Part shown: positions 3,101-9,093 of the stretch, piece after piece
How the letters are laid out: every line of letters begins with the position of its first letter
How positions within the stretch are numbered: the first letter of the stretch is position 1
Virus record (IMG/VR): IMGVR_UViG_2537561928_000018
Reading direction: 5' to 3' (one strand)
From: a virus
Taxonomy: Duplodnaviria; Heunggongvirae; Uroviricota; Caudoviricetes
Length of the DNA: 9,093 nt
Program-made: the position numbers and the translations under genes
Notes under the pieces: generated by a model
Told to the model about the DNA's origin: nothing
What the model saw: only the letters and a program-made list of their open reading frames with translations
The model's database searches: none

Positions 3101-3125
3101 ATGTTACCAATCTGTTAAAAAGCTG

Positions 3126-3164
3126 TTGACAAATAACCTTGAGCATGACATAATTGTATATATA
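3126..3164 (+). promoter_or_regulatory. Sigma70-type promoter P2: TTGACA, 17-bp spacer, extended -10 TGaCATAAT, then TGTATATATA box
   Basis: Seen in sequence: ttgaca 3126-3131, tga-cataat 3146-3154, tgtatatata 3155-3164; same architecture as P1. Confidence 0.55.
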
Positions 3165-3573: not shown

Positions 3574-4284
3574 ATGACAAATGATATTTACATTAATGGC
3601 AGAAAGGTTGATAGCTTCGGTGACTGGTCGCCACAGACTGAACATCCAGCTATCACTATTCAGCGTAAAGAACACGATGAAAGAATTAAGCTTGAGCAAT
3701 CGTTAAAGATGTCACCAAAGGTAATTTCCTTTGTGTCTCCTGAGCCTCAAGAAATGCCAGATATCTGCAAAAGTGAAGCACTATTTAATCTTGAGCGTGA
3801 ATATTACCCACAGTTAAAAGCACAGCGTATTAAACTTGATGACGCTTACAGCAAAGTTACCCTGATGCAATCAGCTATTGAGCCGTCAGAATTTGAGATT
3901 CAGGATGAATTGTCACAGAAACCATTTGTCTATTACCAATACGAAGATAATGATGGTTTTGGTACTTTTCCTGAGAATATCCCAGACGTGATTAATAATC
4001 TTCCTGACGGATATCGAATTGTGAAGATGGTTAAAGCTTCAAGGGGTGCTGGTCAATTTATTTATATGACTAATAAGAGCGATGAAGAACTCTGTGAACT
4101 TGCTAGACAGAACATCTTGGCATCACGTAACAAGCAACTTGAAAATGTTAAGTTGTATCTCTCAAGAGAGCTTCAGGCTATGAAAGAACTTGTTAGTGAA
4201 TATGAATCACAGAAGAAGATTGCTATGCAAGCCGATATTGAGCAGTTAATGAAGATTTCTCAGAAATATGCAAAGGCTATTTGA
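3574..4284 (+). CDS. Hypothetical protein, 236 aa
   Basis: ORF track; SD AGAGGAAA 5 nt upstream of ATG; predicted helical, charged C-terminal third; no family recognised. Confidence 0.75.
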   Translation: MTNDIYINGRKVDSFGDWSPQTEHPAITIQRKEHDERIKLEQSLKMSPKVISFVSPEPQEMPDICKSEALFNLEREYYPQLKAQRIKLDDAYSKVTLMQSAIEPSEFEIQDELSQKPFVYYQYEDNDGFGTFPENIPDVINNLPDGYRIVKMVKASRGAGQFIYMTNKSDEELCELARQNILASRNKQLENVKLYLSRELQAMKELVSEYESQKKIAMQADIEQLMKISQKYAKAI

Positions 4285-4292
4285 GGTGATTA

Positions 4293-4601
4293 ATGAATGA
4301 TTTAACAGAACGCGATAAAAGAATTAAAGGGGTGATGGAACCTTTTGAAGATAGGTTCAATGAAATTAAAACGACTCTTGGTGATATTCAGGAGGTCACT
4401 GAATATCTTATTGGTCGTATGGACGAAAAGCCTCTTGCCGAACTAAAGTGTGATGGTCGGGATGATTTAACGCGACTTCTTATCGAACTCAAGGATAAGA
4501 TAAATAAGCTTGATACTGTGTATTATCAAACTGGTCTTTCACTACGTTATGAAATTCAAAAGAATGAACGCGGTGTCGAGTGTATACACTACTTAGATTA
4601 A
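4293..4601 (+). CDS. Hypothetical protein, 102 aa, N-terminus MNDLTER
   Basis: ORF track; SD GAGG 6 nt upstream; N-terminus paralogous to the next gene. Confidence 0.7.
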   Translation: MNDLTERDKRIKGVMEPFEDRFNEIKTTLGDIQEVTEYLIGRMDEKPLAELKCDGRDDLTRLLIELKDKINKLDTVYYQTGLSLRYEIQKNERGVECIHYLD

Positions 4602-4626
4602 AATCGAATTAAAAAGGAGGTGGTGA

Positions 4627-4830
4627 ATGATTGATTTAACAGAACGCTATGAACTCATCAAGGCAATTAGTGAACGACTGAAAGAACAACCCAACAAACC
4701 AAAACGAATCAAATCATCCACCTCTAAGCAAAATAACAGAATCAGAAGAATCGCTAAATGGTGTCTTGATAAATTACCAAGTGATTGTCAGATTGTTGGT
4801 GAAGATGGCAATTATTATCTGGTTGGGTAA
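4627..4830 (+). CDS. Hypothetical basic protein, 67 aa, N-terminus MIDLTER
   Basis: ORF track; strong SD AAGGAGG 6 nt upstream; K/R-rich middle region. Confidence 0.65.
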   Translation: MIDLTERYELIKAISERLKEQPNKPKRIKSSTSKQNNRIRRIAKWCLDKLPSDCQIVGEDGNYYLVG

Positions 4831-4855: not shown

Positions 4856-4897
4856 GGGAGAGATTATCGAGTGACATCGGTAGTTTCTCCCTTTTTT
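4856..4897 (+). terminator. Hairpin gggaga / tctccc followed by tttttt, putative intrinsic terminator
   Basis: 6-8 bp stem, roughly 20-nt loop with internal complementarity, then a T6 run; lies between the 67-aa gene and the tape-measure-like gene. Confidence 0.45.
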
Positions 4898-4904
4898 GTA
4901 TGTG

Positions 4905-4970
4905 TGCTACGTGAAATCTGTAAAGCTAATACCCACACTGAAAAATAGAATTTACGTACAACACGCTTAA
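4905..4970 (+). promoter_or_regulatory. Conserved 66-bp intergenic element, copy A (upstream of the tape-measure-like gene)
   Basis: Shares the ordered blocks tgctacgtgaaatct ... atacccac ... aaaaat ... tttacgta ... cacgcttaa with copy B at 7049-7114; first 15 nt identical. Confidence 0.5.
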
Positions 4971-4988
4971 AGAGGTGAAATATGAACA

Positions 4989-7037
4989 ATGAGCAAATTT
5001 ACAGTTGATAGTTTTATCGTTGAATTAGGCTTCAGTGAAAACGTTGTTAAAGGCTTGCAAAGAGTTGAAAAGGCAGCTTTGCAGTCAGCACAAAGAATTG
5101 AAAAGAACCTAAATAAAGGTTTCAGGATTAATACAAAACAGCTTGATAGTAATTTGACAAGTTCTTTAGGGCAACTTGAAAGGAAGTTTAATAAGGCTTT
5201 TGACAAGATTGAACAGAGAGCAAGAAGCACAAAAGCTTTCCGTTTCACAAGTCAGGTTAATGACGCTATTAATCCTCCAAAACAACCAAGACAGCCACGA
5301 ATTAGCGGAAACAGAGCAATCACAGCAGCTTACTCAGCGAATATGAGCAAGTTAAAGGGCTTTGACCCTGTTTTGCAGAAATACATCAAATCTCAGTTTT
5401 ACGGGCTATCTGCTAAAGCTGGTCAGATGGATAATTCAAAATTCAATGAGAAGCTGGCTCAGTTAAATGCTTCAGTCAGAGAAGCAATTGCTAAAGCTAA
5501 AGGTCATACATCCACCAGCATTAACGGTGACAGAGCAGCTAATAGTCTTGATAGTTTGAGTTCAGCAGCAGTTAAAACAGCAGGTGCATTTATCAGCTTT
5601 CAGGCTGTACTATCCGCTTATCAGAAGATTATGGAAGTTGGCCTTCAACGTGCATCATCGGAAAGAAGTATTGATTTCGTATTCGGTGACCAAAGTACAC
5701 AGGTCAAAAAGTTCATTCAAGATTTAACTCAAATTACTGGTATGGACACAACCGAAACACAAGCACAGTTTGCTTCATTTGGTGCATCTGCAAAAAATAC
5801 GATGGGTCTTGAAGGCTCAGAGGAATTATTTAAAAACTTAACTGGATATGCCCGTTTAATGGGTCGTTCAGATGAGCAGATTCAAAGAGCATTAACCGCA
5901 GTATCGCAGATGGCTTCTAAGGGTCAGGTGATGGCTGAAGAGCTTAAGGGGCAACTATCTGAAGCTTTACCGGGTGCTACTCAGGCATTTGCAAAGGCTT
6001 TAGGTCTGACTGAAAAACAGCTTTTCGATAAGATGAAAAATGGTGATGTTAAAGCCTCTGATGCACTCCCTAAGTTTGCTAAAGAACTTGGTTCACAGAT
6101 TAATTCCAGAGGTGGCTGGAAAGCTATTCAGGACTCTACGCAGACGATGTTAGGGAACTTAAAGAATACTTGGAACAACTCACTAACGGATATCTTCAGA
6201 GGTTCTGAAAATGGTCTTCAAGATTTCACAAGAAGCTTAACAACGCTTTTAAATAGTCTTGGTGGGAGTGGTAAAACATTAGGTGAAAGTCTTGGTAATC
6301 TCATGACTTCTATGTCACACGGTGTCGATAACCTGACTGATATTAGTTACAGGGTAAGGGCGTTCTTTGACGAGGTGACATTGGCTTATCGTGGTTTAAC
6401 CGATGAACAAAAGAAAGTTGTTGATGCTTTAGGTTCTGGCTTGATTAATAGTTTAAAAGTCTTGGCTGGTGTTATTGCTGTAAATAAAGTTGTTGGTGTA
6501 ACCAGAAGTATTTACGGGCTTATGACTGCTATCACAAGATTAGGTCAGGTCGCTGATACTACAGCGGATAACGTGAATAGAAAGAACGGGAAACCATCAA
6601 GGTTTAATCTTGGGAATATGCTATTAGCTGGTAGTGCTATCTATGCAGGTTATGAAAGATTAGCCTCTACACCTGAACGAATGGAAGCACAAGCTAAATT
6701 ACCAGAGCTGGCTAAAGAGTCTGGACTTAAGCCAGTATTTACTATGGACGATGTGAAAGGTTGGTTTAATAGTGCAGCTATGAATCTTGCTAACTTCCAG
6801 CATCCAGAATTAATCACCATGAGACAAGATGCGGCATTAACGAATACGGATATCCAAAGCCTGAGAGATGAAATTAGTGCTTTGAGCAAACGTATTCAGG
6901 AGCCTGTGAAAGTTTCACTTGGTGGTGAAGTTGCCATTAAACCAGATGAAACCAGCTTTATGACCTTTAGCAGTAATATCTACGACCAATACGCAGAAGC
7001 TACGCTATTAAGTTCATCATTCCCAGAAGATGATTGA
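4989..7037 (+). CDS. Tape-measure-like protein, 682 aa
   Basis: ORF track; residues about 300-368 (ALTAVSQMASKGQVMAEELKGQLSEALPGATQAFAKALGLTEKQLFDKMKNGDVKASDALPKFAKELG) match my recollection of the conserved core of phage tail tape-measure proteins (SKG.V.AEEL..QL.E.LPGA...A.A.G pattern); A/Q/K/L/S-rich helical composition. The only SD (AGAGGTG) is about 11 nt upstream of the ATG. Confidence 0.6.
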   Translation: MSKFTVDSFIVELGFSENVVKGLQRVEKAALQSAQRIEKNLNKGFRINTKQLDSNLTSSLGQLERKFNKAFDKIEQRARSTKAFRFTSQVNDAINPPKQPRQPRISGNRAITAAYSANMSKLKGFDPVLQKYIKSQFYGLSAKAGQMDNSKFNEKLAQLNASVREAIAKAKGHTSTSINGDRAANSLDSLSSAAVKTAGAFISFQAVLSAYQKIMEVGLQRASSERSIDFVFGDQSTQVKKFIQDLTQITGMDTTETQAQFASFGASAKNTMGLEGSEELFKNLTGYARLMGRSDEQIQRALTAVSQMASKGQVMAEELKGQLSEALPGATQAFAKALGLTEKQLFDKMKNGDVKASDALPKFAKELGSQINSRGGWKAIQDSTQTMLGNLKNTWNNSLTDIFRGSENGLQDFTRSLTTLLNSLGGSGKTLGESLGNLMTSMSHGVDNLTDISYRVRAFFDEVTLAYRGLTDEQKKVVDALGSGLINSLKVLAGVIAVNKVVGVTRSIYGLMTAITRLGQVADTTADNVNRKNGKPSRFNLGNMLLAGSAIYAGYERLASTPERMEAQAKLPELAKESGLKPVFTMDDVKGWFNSAAMNLANFQHPELITMRQDAALTNTDIQSLRDEISALSKRIQEPVKVSLGGEVAIKPDETSFMTFSSNIYDQYAEATLLSSSFPEDD

Positions 7038-7048
7038 TAATAGTCGAA

Positions 7049-7114
7049 TGCTACGTGAAATCTTCTGAACAGATATACCCACCAAAAATTATTTTTTACG
7101 TAGCTCACGCTTAA
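7049..7114 (+). promoter_or_regulatory. Conserved 66-bp intergenic element, copy B (upstream of the 258-aa gene)
   Basis: See copy A; begins 12 nt after the stop of the tape-measure-like gene and ends about 80 nt before the ATG at 7195. Confidence 0.5.
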
Positions 7115-7194
7115 CAGAGAAAACACTTATATATCAAAGGCTTGGTTAAAAATGATTAAAATACACTAAGTCTTTGAAATCAAAGGAGAATTTA

Positions 7195-7968
7195 ATGATT
7201 TACTCTAACCAAATCAAATATAGTGGCAAAGATGGCATCTATTTCCACTTAAGAGATAATGTAGATGCCTTCTTAACCTTATCAGCAACTGAAAACATGG
7301 AATTTGACAGCCCTATGCAGGTAACTACACAGAACATGCAATCAGGGCAAACCGTCACAGATAATGTGCAAAGAGCACCCAGAACAATCACTATTAGTGG
7401 TGTCGTTGTAGTTGGCTATGAAGGAAGTTTATTATTAACTCGTCAGGGTCAATTAGTAGAAAACTTCATTGACACTCTCGAAAGCTGGCGTGACCAGAAG
7501 CAAATTATTTCGGTCATCTGTAAAGACGGTATCAAGATTGATGACTCCATTATCACGAGTTTTAAAGCCTCTAAAGATGTTGGAATTTCAAACGGCTTAA
7601 GAATCCAATTAACTTTTCAGGAAATTAACTTTAAAGCTATTGTGGGTCAGACTGATATCTCGGCTGCGACCGGAAGGACTTCTACCACAAGTGATGGTGG
7701 TGCTACCAGTAAAAAGAATACTGGTAATACTACAACAAGTCTAGGTAATGGTATGTTGCTGTGTCAGGAGCTATATAATCGCTCTACGAGTGAACTTTCT
7801 AATGAGCAACTTCAAGCCCGTATCAATTGTGGTAGAAGTGTCAAAGTTGAGAATGGAAAAAGCACCTTCTCAGATGCCGCTAATGAGCAAGCTTCAAAGG
7901 CGCTTAATAATGCTGGTACAGGTAATGTTTTGAAGAGGCTTTCTGTGAATCCTAACAAGCGCTACTGA
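7195..7968 (+). CDS. Hypothetical protein, 258 aa from the ATG (ORF track begins at TTG 7174); possibly tail-associated by position only
   Basis: ATG at 7195 has SD AAGGAG 6 nt upstream, and the TTG at 7174 would overlap it; contains an S/T/G-rich linker ([28 protein letters not shown]) between two regions; no family recognised. Confidence 0.7.
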
Positions 7969-7982
7969 CGATAGAATCTCAA

Positions 7983-8678
7983 CTATATGATAACCTCATC
8001 AACATCTATTAAACCCCTCTCAGTGACTTCAGAAAGCGACTGTATAGCCTCTGTAACGTCCTCTGAGGGGTTTTCTGTTATTGGTAAGGTGATTGCTCTA
8101 CCGTTGTGAAAAGTTACTTTACAGCGACGTTTAGCAGTATTTAAAACGACCTCTTTAACAGCACTTTTGATTATCAGTTGTGCTTCAATCCTTCCCGCCT
8201 TTGTAGTCAAGTCACAATCAGACAAAGAGCCTGTATCGATAGACTTAAGCCGCTGTGTCTCCTTCTCGATATCCGCATCAACCTGTGATAGCTCACCTTT
8301 TAACTGTTTTAGTTTGCTGGTAATAGCGGACAAGTCTTCAATTTCAAGTGATAGCTGTACCAGCTTTTCAATATTGTTTGAGATGTGTTCACGGTGTAGC
8401 TTCAGTGTGTCTATGGTATTCGTCGTATCGCTATCAAATCGGTCAAGACGAGATAGCAGGGTAAGTAATGTACCATCGGTTTGCTTACGTGAAAGTCCTT
8501 TAGCACTACAACGGTTTTCATTACGAAGGGGACAACGATAAATCCCGTTTCTTGTATTGCTAAAGCCTGTGATAATCAGAGCATGACCACATTCAGAACA
8601 ACGGATAACACCTTTAAAGAGATTCACACTCAATGGTTTATCTGAAGCAGGTTTTCGACCGTAACGAGAATGTGATAG
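7983..8678 (-). pseudogene. Large serine recombinase, 3' fragment (zinc-ribbon plus coiled-coil region); 5' catalytic part displaced by the IS3 insertion
   Basis: Minus-strand frame is open from the IS3 boundary with no credible start (track start at 8633 is a TTG); Cys pattern RCSECGH...YRCPLRNENRC followed by a long heptad-like coiled coil is typical of the C-terminal region of large serine integrases; about 230 aa is too short for a complete enzyme. Confidence 0.7.
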
Positions 8679-8743
8679 TGATCTTACCCAGCAATAGTGG
8701 ACACGCGGCTAAGTGAGTAAACTCTCAGTCAGAGGTGACTCAC

Positions 8744-9043
8744 ATGACAAAAACAGTATCAACCAGTAAAAAACCCCGTAAACAGCATTCGCCTGAATTT
8801 CGCAGTGAAGCCCTGAAGCTTGCTGAACGCATCGGTGTTACTGCCGCAGCCCGTGAACTCAGCCTGTATGAATCACAACTCTACAACTGGCGCAGTAAAC
8901 AGCAAAATCAGCAGACGTCTTCTGAACGTGAACTGGAGATGTCTACCGAGATTGCACGTCTCAAACGCCAGCTGGCAGAACGGGATGAAGAGCTGGCTAT
9001 CCTCCAAAAGGCCGCGACATACTTCGCGAAGCGCCTGAAATGA
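8744..9043 (+). CDS. insE: IS3 OrfA (transposase N-terminal / regulatory protein), 99 aa from the ATG
   Basis: Translation MTKTVSTSKKPRKQHSPEFRSEALKLAERIGVTAAARELSLYESQLYNWRSKQQ... is the IS3 OrfA sequence as I recall it; the track start at 8735 is an upstream GTG. Confidence 0.85.
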   Translation: MTKTVSTSKKPRKQHSPEFRSEALKLAERIGVTAAARELSLYESQLYNWRSKQQNQQTSSERELEMSTEIARLKRQLAERDEELAILQKAATYFAKRLK

Positions 9044-9093
9044 AGTATGTCTTTATTGAAAAACATCAGGCTGAGTTCAGCATCAAAGCAATG
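9040..9093 (+). CDS. insF: IS3 OrfB (transposase catalytic part), 5' end only
   Basis: ATG overlaps the insE stop (ATGA); translation MKYVFIEKHQAEFSIKAM matches the IS3 OrfB N-terminus as I recall it; truncated by the window edge. Confidence 0.8.
   Translation, partial: MKYVFIEKHQAEFSIKAM

Follow-up and report, generated by a model that had tools for sequence, protein, structure and literature searches.

A conserved 66-bp element precedes the tail genes of an enterobacterial island and is a candidate activator-dependent promoter/operator

Late promoters that depend on the activators Ogr, delta, or C combine a -10 without a -35 with an upstream dyad, which in promoters of the P2/P4 type is TGT-N12-ACA near -55. 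The 66-bp element described here resembles the promoters controlled by P2 Ogr and P4 delta (P4 Psid and the P2 late promoters) and by Mu C/Mor in having a -10-like hexamer and no usable -35, in having a dyad upstream at a fixed distance, in preceding morphogenetic genes, and in apparently serving a mobile element that relies on a phage or interferes with it. It differs from them in that its boxes are ACGT-centred and lie near -47 and -3, and in that the second box, which is inverted, overlaps the site where transcription is predicted to begin. Among the island proteins, none was recognizable as an activator like Ogr, delta, or C, and the motif of the element was not found at the late promoters of a helper-type phage (Felix O1).

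Promoters controlled by Stl in SaPIs and by AlpA in PICIs offer a second comparison. There, too, palindromic sites flank the core promoter, and an island promoter under a dedicated regulator is fired by helper-phage infection, as is predicted here. Unlike SaPIs and PICIs, the present island has no identified repressor or AlpA homologue, encodes a large serine recombinase rather than a tyrosine integrase, and has a presumed partner phage that is virulent. The middle (MotA box) and late (TATAAATA) promoters of T4 share with the element a TAnnnT-type -10 and a non-canonical upstream element in place of the -35; however, the element has neither a TGCTTtA box at -30 nor TATAAATA, and to our knowledge Felix O1-type phages do not encode MotA/AsiA or gp55/gp33. 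The element recalls antitermination sites such as lambda nut and rrn boxB-boxA through its predicted hairpin and, after it, a sequence like CGCTTAACA with a loose resemblance to boxA (TGCTCTTTAACAA in rrn), but it falls 3 nt short of a boxA match, the hairpin shows no covariation beyond shuffled controls, and the element lies downstream, not upstream, of the only nearby terminator. Like REP/BIME, ERIC, and MITE repeats, the element is short and intergenic, has terminal inverted repeats, and is present in several copies per genome. Unlike them, it occupies two defined positions in one island family in a single orientation and belongs to no Rfam family, and we know of no resemblance to the REP or ERIC consensus sequences.

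The window analyzed here, the whole 9,093-nt stretch of the IMG/VR record IMGVR_UViG_2537561928_000018, is part of a chromosomal island of ~11.5 kb that lies between the halves of E. coli yecE and encodes a 507-aa large serine recombinase. It belongs to a family of islands of E. coli and Citrobacter, ~10-12 kb in size, that carry a large serine recombinase and are inserted at yecE, tonB, or wrbA. Of 5,426 complete E. coli genomes, 420-467 (~8%) contain such islands, with as many as 6 copies in a single genome; islands of this kind also occur in Citrobacter and E. albertii. Two of the genes in the window encode tail proteins, a tape-measure protein (TMP) and a Dit-like baseplate protein (Table 1). 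The TMP is 31% identical to that of Felix O1, with the first ~40 aa conserved. Dit is 82% identical to Felix O1 ORF68 overall and ~97% identical across alignable residues 6-185, and at the nucleotide level 7210-7753 is ~95% identical to Felix-like phages of E. coli. Judged by sequence, the island captured TMP and Dit from virulent phages of the Felix O1/SUSP1 type (Ounavirinae).

Several traits of phage satellites were seen in the island, namely an integrase, a small size, and genes matching a helper phage (the Felix O1-type TMP and Dit). Circular or concatemer junctions were absent among 133 loci from metagenome and virome contigs, no replication or packaging gene was recognized on the island, and PADLOC returned no match for it. 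The only PHROG, Pfam, or NCBIfam match among its non-tail proteins was one HNH domain. Searches of the island proteins for a regulator (Pfam, PHROGs, NCBIfam, PADLOC, and PDB sequences) gave nothing informative, and a homology search with a 236-aa island protein gave only near-identical E. coli proteins, labeled 'transposase' at NCBI and lacking a domain. No description of the island or of the element was found in the searchable literature. The element itself is of an ordinary kind, and the undescribed island that surrounds it is the more interesting of the two.

The two copies of the element in the window, copy A upstream of TMP and copy B upstream of Dit, were the top direct repeat in a repeat search (66 nt, 71% ungapped identity). 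An all-against-all scan of the whole window gave no ungapped 66-nt pair with more matches than their 47/66, and the corresponding values in 15 shuffles of the window were 36-40 (mean, 37.9). The 15-mer TGCTACGTGAAATCT has two exact occurrences, where 0.32 matches would be expected even with three mismatches tolerated. The 66-bp repeat is real and lies far above chance. An earlier note on this DNA had described the pair, and its description was confirmed: the copies are of equal total length and start with 15 identical nt, and all of the ordered blocks that it listed were found, with ATACCCAC and AAAAAT shifted by 1-2 nt between copies. As it had said, each copy precedes a start codon, at a distance of 18 nt for copy A (start at 4989) and 80 nt for copy B (start at 7195, as annotated in RefSeq), and follows a terminator-like hairpin (copy A) or a stop codon (copy B, which begins 11 nt after the TMP stop at 7037). 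The two ACGT cores, reported as ~45 bp apart, are separated by 45 bp in copy A (4909-4912/4954-4957) and copy B (7053-7056/7098-7101) alike, and a sigma-70 scan agreed that neither copy contains a -35/-10 pair.

Table 1. Features of the two copies of the 66-bp element and of the surrounding genes (positions in the window)
Feature	Position	Strand	Remarks
Intrinsic-terminator-like hairpin with T-run	4856..4899	+	Hairpin 4856-4891; closes the upstream operon before copy A
Copy A, 66-bp candidate cassette	4905..4970	+	Upstream of the tape-measure gene
Left ACGT box, copy A	4906..4916	+	GCTACGTGAAA; centre ~47 bp upstream of the predicted start
-10-like hexamer, copy A	4946..4951	+	TAGAAT; element columns 42-47
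Right ACGT box, copy A	4951..4961	+	TTTACGTACAA; inverted partner of the left box
CACGCTTAA block, copy A	4962..4970	+	Directly abuts RBS GAGGTG (4971-4976)
Tape-measure protein gene	4989..7037	+	682 aa; Felix O1 ORF67 type; Pfam TMP_3, phrog_4036
Copy B, 66-bp candidate cassette	7049..7114	+	Upstream of the Dit-like baseplate gene
Left ACGT box, copy B	7050..7060	+	GCTACGTGAAA
-10-like hexamer, copy B	7090..7095	+	TATTTT
Right ACGT box, copy B	7095..7105	+	TTTTACGTAGC
CACGCTTAA block, copy B	7106..7114	+
Leader (80 nt), copy B to Dit start	7115..7194	+	13-bp hairpin 7134-7146/7165-7177; RBS AGGAG 7184-7188
Dit-like baseplate protein gene	7195..7968	+	257 aa; Felix O1 ORF68 type; Pfam Dit_like, phrog_3721
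Large serine recombinase gene of the island, 3' part	7983..8633	-	Interrupted by an IS3-family insertion, orfA 8735-9043

Searches of E. coli genomes, IMG/VR, and metagenomes for related elements gathered 166 copies, representing 53 variants. With search patterns that permitted a wide length range, 162/166 copies were exactly 66 nt long, despite A- and T-runs of differing length, and the distance from the left ACGT box to the -10-like hexamer was a constant 38 bp, centre to centre, again in 162/166 copies. Wherever the downstream gene was readable (161/161 copies), the element lay in the coding-strand orientation, 12-27 or ~80 nt before a TMP or Dit start. It was present upstream of 113/115 Dit genes vs 48/100 TMP genes. 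The remaining 52/100 TMP genes lay directly behind the terminator and were still intact, so the element is not essential for every TMP copy. Identity was 84-95% within the element vs 69-89% in the flanking coding DNA, and the 80-nt leader that follows copy B had a mean identity of 96% across 61 distinct contexts.

Conservation within the element was unevenly distributed. Over 52 variants, T42, A43, and T47 were invariant and columns 44-46 variable, and T48, A20, A25-T26-A27, and C32-A33, together with the A-tract, also stayed invariant or nearly so beside freely varying neighbors. The invariance of the TAnnnT, A-tract, ATA, and CA columns was not forced by any search pattern. That of the ACGT boxes is in part a product of how the copies were retrieved: CTACGTGA of the left box was (near-)invariant over the 52 variants, which the search pattern in part imposed.

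We consider the chances about even (a probability of roughly 0.5) that the 66-bp element is an activator-dependent promoter/operator cassette, which would let the island switch on TMP and Dit itself. A promoter for a dedicated activator or an alternative sigma factor was one of three roles proposed in the earlier note, and it is the best supported of them, given the strict orientation and position, the invariant TAnnnT, and the constant length; promoter activity, the transcription start site, and protein binding at the boxes are what we infer from this anatomy. The cassette would give each captured gene its own transcription start. Its left ACGT box (columns 2-12) would be followed by conserved contacts at A20, ATA 25-27, and CA 32-33, by the A-tract (columns 37-40), and by the -10-like TAnnnT (columns 42-47). 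By the usual -10 spacing, transcription is predicted to start at column 54-55, that is, at ~4958-4959 in copy A and ~7102-7103 in copy B. The right ACGT box (columns 47-57), inverted relative to the left one, would overlap this start and is placed as an operator might be, and CACGCTTAA would lie at the 5' end of the mRNA, leading straight into the RBS or the conserved leader.

Both hexamers have T-12, A-11, and T-7, the positions of a -10 that sigma-70 reads most strictly. A consensus scan found neither a canonical -35 located 16-18 bp upstream nor an extended -10 TGn in either copy: the best -35 candidate, TGAACA (4/6), is present in some variants only, with none in the copy A type, and the TGn position is taken by AA[A/T]. 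Lacking a -35, the element would require a helper protein for RNA polymerase, possibly an activator bound at the left box or the -30 contacts. The ACGT boxes have their centres near -47 and -3, which differ from the classical activator positions, and the opposite strand of the invariant bases reads TA[A/T]TTT, so the orientation of the -10 is given by context only. The upstream operons of the island have canonical sigma-70 promoters at 1141-1169 and 3126-3154, and the terminator just before copy A means that a new transcription start is needed there.

Parts of the element were also read as sites for sigma-32, sigma-E, sigma-54, CRP, LexA, and IHF, or for DnaA, MarA, TyrR, ArgR, and MotA (MotA box), and by eye none of these readings was kept across variant types. 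A T4-middle-like CGCTTAA-N13-TATATA downstream of copy B was rejected because an RBS immediately follows in copy A and in a second type of Dit (MFDTKQ start).

There is no terminator between TMP and copy B, and the element could instead act in a polycistronic TMP-Dit transcript as a site for RNA processing, stability, or protein binding and so uncouple the downstream gene in its expression. Its inverted boxes would then pair, GCUACGUGAAA with UUUACGUAGC, and enclose a loop of ~35-45 nt. Such a stem (8-11 bp) was predicted in every variant tested, three of four folds gave sense-strand z values of -2.5 to -3.9 and the other gave -1.0 (~ -0.5 for the antisense strand), and the only common variable pair switches between G-U and G-C (30 vs 21 variants, with one A-U). 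Covariation over the 52 variants, however, equalled that of shuffled controls, with 89.2% vs 89.4% of cells paired and both sides changed at 2 pairs vs 1.9, and outer and inner stem positions were broken without compensation. Five of the 11 pairs never vary and three deviate by unpaired cells only, the invariance of the core being partly forced by retrieval. A search of Rfam 15 with permissive filters (E<=1) gave no match anywhere in the window, and sequence-specific invariant columns at a fixed length are unusual in a large hairpin loop. With a strong terminator ahead of copy A, readthrough RNA that includes this copy would be scarce. No intrinsic terminator was found by scan inside either copy, the right arm being followed by GCTCACGC or CAACACGC. 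With neither covariation beyond shuffles nor an Rfam match, the RNA processing or structural role suggested earlier finds no support, and we regard it as unlikely.

The element was added on the island side, since TMP and Dit abut without a spacer or element in Felix O1 and SUSP1, where they lie inside a tightly packed late operon. It could owe its form to those same phages, by mimicking one of their late or middle promoters so that a phage factor fires the island tail genes on infection, much as P2 Ogr acts at P4 Psid. The phage-derived payload, with the Dit and coliphage identities given above, fits such a scheme, as does the element's combination of an upstream dyad with a -10 but no -35, the architecture of Ogr-, delta-, and C-dependent late promoters. 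Phage genomes were scanned for the element in full for Felix O1 and in part for SUSP1. In the 86-kb Felix O1 genome, exact or near-exact words for the boxes and position-weight matrices for five sub-regions did not score above shuffled expectation, and the intergenic regions ahead of structural genes, when read through, did not resemble the element. By blastn, the copy B region had no match among 50,697 phage records, and copy A matched phages only in the TMP-proximal stretch from 4948 on, where Felix O1 lacks the element. On these scans of Felix O1, of part of SUSP1, and of the phage records, mimicry of a phage promoter seems quite improbable.

The variants are mosaics, and a given variant may occupy either the TMP-side or the Dit-side position; copy A is identical to the element on the Dit side of the TMP-Dit junction in another island (L005). 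These patterns, which indicate that ordinary homologous recombination runs through the element, could also be expected if the two direct copies were sites for exchange of the TMP gene, or if the element were a MITE-like mobile inverted-repeat insertion. It does bear 11-nt terminal inverted repeats and is present or absent upstream of TMP in 48 vs 52 cases. A dedicated recombination site, the third role in the earlier note, is nevertheless unsupported. The att core of the island, TAGTGTATTTAAAC-GT-CTAAATACACTA, as derived from the island ends, has no similarity to the 66-mer, and no second recombinase is present. The gene downstream was always TMP or Dit (161/161), and no arrangement in which TMP was missing or replaced by another gene was found in the 161 contexts or in extra genomes. 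The 'empty' TMP sites were several differing deletion remnants rather than clean sites, target-site duplications were not seen, and the copies were confined to two genomic contexts. We therefore judge both cassette exchange and MITE-like mobility to be very unlikely.

Slighter still is the chance that the element has no function of its own and is a duplicated 5' untranslated region, carried along and conserved on account of the young age of the islands. In favor of this, the element is carried solely by closely related islands of Enterobacteriaceae, and TMP-side copies have decayed in many cases. Against it, invariant columns are interspersed with columns that have two or three common alleles, element length is constant in spite of run-length changes, and the Dit-side copy is kept in 98% of islands and is conserved at least as well as the neighboring coding sequence.

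If the element is a regulated promoter, it would be the control point of a widespread island whose tail genes were captured, and continue to be updated, from virulent phages of the Felix O1 type. Such phages serve in typing and biocontrol of Salmonella and E. coli. As a tentative extension, which we think rather unlikely, the promoter/operator cassette may be an infection-responsive switch of undescribed islands that live as parasites of virulent Ounavirinae (Felix O1/SUSP1-like) phages or provide defense against them. The -35-less promoter would be fired by a factor, encoded by phage or island, that acts on the ACGT boxes. Dit, with its near-identical N terminus, and the shortened tape measure would then enter phage tail assembly and poison it or redirect it for spread of the island. 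Satellites and defense elements that act against virulent coliphages, and the ways in which they sense infection, are poorly known, and the element offers a short, testable handle as a 66-bp reporter and as bait for a regulator pull-down. Should it serve the island as no more than a housekeeping promoter, the finding would be ordinary.

Two further observations concern the vicinity of the element. Islands that lack the rest of it still keep the remnant AACACTTAAGAGG. The terminator hairpin before copy A is kept among islands, with changes on both arms as seen by eye and uncounted.

The window is not a phage but covers the right-hand portion of an ~11.5-kb island in E. coli yecE, and it carries two copies of a 66-bp element, copy A before a tape-measure protein (TMP) gene and copy B before a gene for a Dit-like baseplate protein. 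The earlier note's observation of this repeat was confirmed. A repeat search ranked the two copies first among direct repeats, and by all-against-all scan no other ungapped 66-nt pair of the window matched as well, at 47 positions (71% identity) compared to 36-40 in 15 shuffles. The 15 identical nucleotides reported at their start are present; only 0.32 occurrences of this 15-mer are expected even allowing three mismatches. Also as reported, copy A lies behind a strong terminator-like hairpin and copy B lies 11 nt past a stop codon, with ATG start codons 18 nt and 80 nt, respectively, after the ends of the copies.

Features of the window and of locus L002, which holds an intact island copy at 10085-21577
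Feature	Position	Remarks
TTAACAG sites	9-15, 94-100, 580-586, 1182-1188, 2808-2814, 3112-3118, 4302-4308, 4636-4642, 7111-7117, 8155-8161	
Small palindrome GATGATTCGGATGAAGCATCCTCAT	397-421; L002 10126 and 12397	beside attL; second site 2.3 kb into the island
48-nt direct repeat	536-583 / 633-680	83% identity, spaced 97 bp
Canonical promoter	1141-1169	TTGACA-17-TAGTAT
Left-box 11-mer CTACGTGAAAT	2424-2434	inside HNH endonuclease ORF, encoding FYVKY
Canonical promoter	3126-3154	TTGACA-17-CATAAT
Starts of two small ORFs	4283-4319 / 4617-4653	RBS and first ~9 codons, 86% identical
Terminator-like hairpin	4856-4891	end of second operon
Copy A	4905-4970	predicted transcription start 4958-4959
8-codon mini-ORF	4982-5008	ATGAACAAT...
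TMP gene	4989-7037	Pfam TMP_3, phrog_4036; Felix O1 ORF67 homologue
Copy B	7049-7114	predicted transcription start 7102-7103
80-nt leader	7115-7194	copy B to Dit start
Leader hairpin	7134-7146/7165-7177	13 bp
5-codon mini-ORF	7152-7169	MIKIH
Dit-like gene	7195-7968	Pfam Dit_like, phrog_3721; Felix O1 ORF68 homologue
Dit, near-phage-identical part	7210-7753	first ~185 codons
Dit, divergent part	7754-7968	last ~70 codons
IS3-family insertion	8680-9093	orfA 8735-9043
Degenerate third copy, 3' half	L002 10554-10578	AGATTTCATGTAGAACACGATTAG; island left end, outside the window

Distribution of the element was analyzed across genomes. The regions of the two copies were found in 420 and 467 of 5,426 complete E. 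coli genomes, in at most 5-6 places each and never on plasmids, and pattern scans of IMG/VR and metagenomes added 121 loci. All loci pooled gave 166 copies in 53 distinct variants; the retrieval patterns fix the two ACGT boxes, and all carriers are closely related. Although A and T run lengths differ among variants, 162 copies were exactly 66 nt and four were 67 nt, under patterns that permitted a broad length range. The element was on the coding strand in all 161 copies with a readable downstream gene, 12-27 nt before TMP starts, 12-25 nt before MFDTKQ-type Dit starts, and 78-81 nt before MIYSNQ-type Dit starts (types named by N-terminal residues). It preceded 113 of 115 Dit genes, the two others being cut by an insertion sequence and having a phage-like TAATG junction, respectively, but only 48 of 100 TMP genes, where other sites had several different deletion remnants (e.g., AACACTTAAGAGG), one internal deletion, or a palindromic insertion. 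These counts indicate that the position upstream of Dit is canonical and strongly retained and that the TMP-side copy, here copy A, is dispensable. It is scarcely probable that the element lacks a function.

Alignment of the 52 equal-length variants revealed (near-)invariant columns at CTACGTGA (columns 3-10), A20, A25-T26-A27, C32-A33, A37-A40, T42-A43, T47-T48, ACGTA (columns 50-54), and CAcGCTTAA (columns 58-66). Because the retrieval patterns required the boxes, some of the A-run, and GCTTA, conservation there was partly imposed; A20, ATA, CA, TA, and TT were free of such constraint and have neighboring columns in which two or three alleles are common. T42-A43-N3-T47 forms a TAnnnT hexamer (forms include TAGAAT, TATTTT, TAGATT, and TAATTT), which retains exactly the three -10 positions that sigma-70 reads most strictly. 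Neither a conserved -35 nor a TGn was found in the element by variant alignment and promoter scan.

As a kind, the element is a variant of something known. Judged from sequence, its most likely role (probability about 0.5) would be that of a -35-less promoter cassette, controlled by an activator or operator, for independent expression of captured tail genes. Transcription would start 7 nt past the hexamer, at column 54-55, which would place the left box center near -47 and the right box, its inverted partner, across the start. CACGCTTAA would then supply the first bases of the mRNA, with a 23-30-nt leader into the RBS or, in the MIYSNQ type, the 80-nt leader with its hairpin. The island's other operons have canonical promoters, and the second ends at the terminator directly before copy A, so that the layout resembles early operons, a terminator, and specially controlled tail genes. 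A promoter for a dedicated activator or alternative sigma factor, as proposed in the earlier note, stands as the most likely reading. A search for the regulator among the island proteins gave no informative family or structure matches.

Of the stretches measured, conservation was highest in the 80-nt leader (mean identity of 96% over 61 contexts). The 8-codon mini-ORF overlaps the TMP start, beginning 7 nt upstream of it, has better RBS spacing than the TMP ATG, and is conserved as ATGAACAATGGCACAATTTAA in other islands. TTAACAG occurred 10 times compared to 1.8 expected (0/200 shuffles reached 10); several copies adjoin the sigma-70-like promoters and one lies at the copy B 3' edge, and the heptamer may be a binding motif.

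Function at the RNA level is rather unlikely. The boxes can pair as an 8-11-bp stem around a large loop; sense-strand z was -1.0 in one fold and between -2.5 and -3.9 in the three others (antisense, about -0.5). Across the 52 variants, covariation for the suggested RNA structure was at the level of shuffles: 89.2% of cells were paired compared to 89.4% in shuffles, two pairs changed on both sides (1.9 expected), and three departed solely through unpaired cells. The helix core is invariant, which leaves an RNA role some probability. At column 49, a T/C exchange is frequent (G-U or G-C) and is equally compatible with an RNA helix and with an imperfect inverted repeat in DNA. Rfam gave no match. 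A total length that stays constant and a sequence-specific "loop" are more in keeping with protein-DNA geometry than with a hairpin loop.

Clear mosaicism was seen among variants, and a given variant can stand before TMP in some islands and before Dit in others, as a recombination or mobile role would allow. Another island (L005) has a Dit-side copy with exactly the sequence of copy A, and the two copies of one island share 67-97% identity. Homologous exchange, both among related islands and between the two positions, would be expected to give such patterns, which do not indicate a dedicated recombination site. The att core from the island ends, TAGTGTATTTAAAC-GT-CTAAATACACTA, does not resemble the element, the island has no second recombinase, and circular junctions were sought but not found. 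Exchange of the flanked gene, raised earlier, found no counterpart among the islands examined, none having it missing or replaced. We consider a recombination or mobile role very unlikely.

The promoter cassette might, as a special case, mimic a phage promoter, which is unlikely. The TMP and Dit genes are of the type found in the virulent Ounavirinae phages Felix O1 (scanned in full) and SUSP1 (in part), where no spacer separates the chaperone, TMP, and Dit genes, which overlap or adjoin one another, indicating that the element belongs to the island. A copied Felix O1 promoter was rejected for Felix O1 itself: box, 3' block, and matrix matches did not exceed shuffles, and its intergenic regions do not resemble the element. 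The copy-B region had no match in phage records, and copy-A matches were restricted to the TMP-proximal stretch from 4948 on, where Felix O1 lacks the element. Any regulator would thus more probably be encoded by the island, or else be a phage protein inactive at such sites in the phage's own genome.

A large serine recombinase (507 aa) marks the island boundary. Its gene is truncated here by the IS3-family insertion, and this island probably can no longer excise. Sister islands sharing this right-hand module adjoin tonB and wrbA, and others occur in Citrobacter and E. albertii. Only TMP, Dit, and HNH/AP2 endonuclease-like genes are shared with Felix O1. TMP is 31% identical to ORF67 overall, with conservation of its first ~40 residues; Dit reaches 82% identity to ORF68 overall and about 97% across alignable residues 6-185. 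E. coli Felix-like phages are about 95% identical over the near-phage-identical part of Dit, the remaining window having no close phage match. The Dit-like gene is thereby chimeric, with a divergent end, which suggests recent recombination with the phage. PADLOC had no match to the island, family searches of its other proteins yielded nothing beyond one HNH domain, and no description was found in the literature searched. The island could be a new satellite or defense island aimed at virulent Ounavirinae. This context, a common island in which the N-terminal domain of Dit is almost identical to that of phages and TMP has diverged, would repay experiments more than the element itself.

The two small ORFs (102 and 67 aa, starting MNDLTER and MIDLTER) are consecutive and occupy the Felix O1 tail-chaperone position, without detectable homology to tail-chaperone genes. 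The 48-nt repeat, in the island's long non-coding left part, looks iteron-like and could mark an origin or regulatory region. About 0.004 chance occurrences of the left-box 11-mer are expected. The degenerate third copy scored 13.7 (shuffle maximum, 6.3) and has no gene after it. In four metagenome copies, the TMP-side element has its left ACGT box split by a ~25-nt palindrome related to GATGATTCGGATGAAGCATCCTCAT; palindromes of this type may be tiny mobile hairpins or remnants of a tandem insertion.
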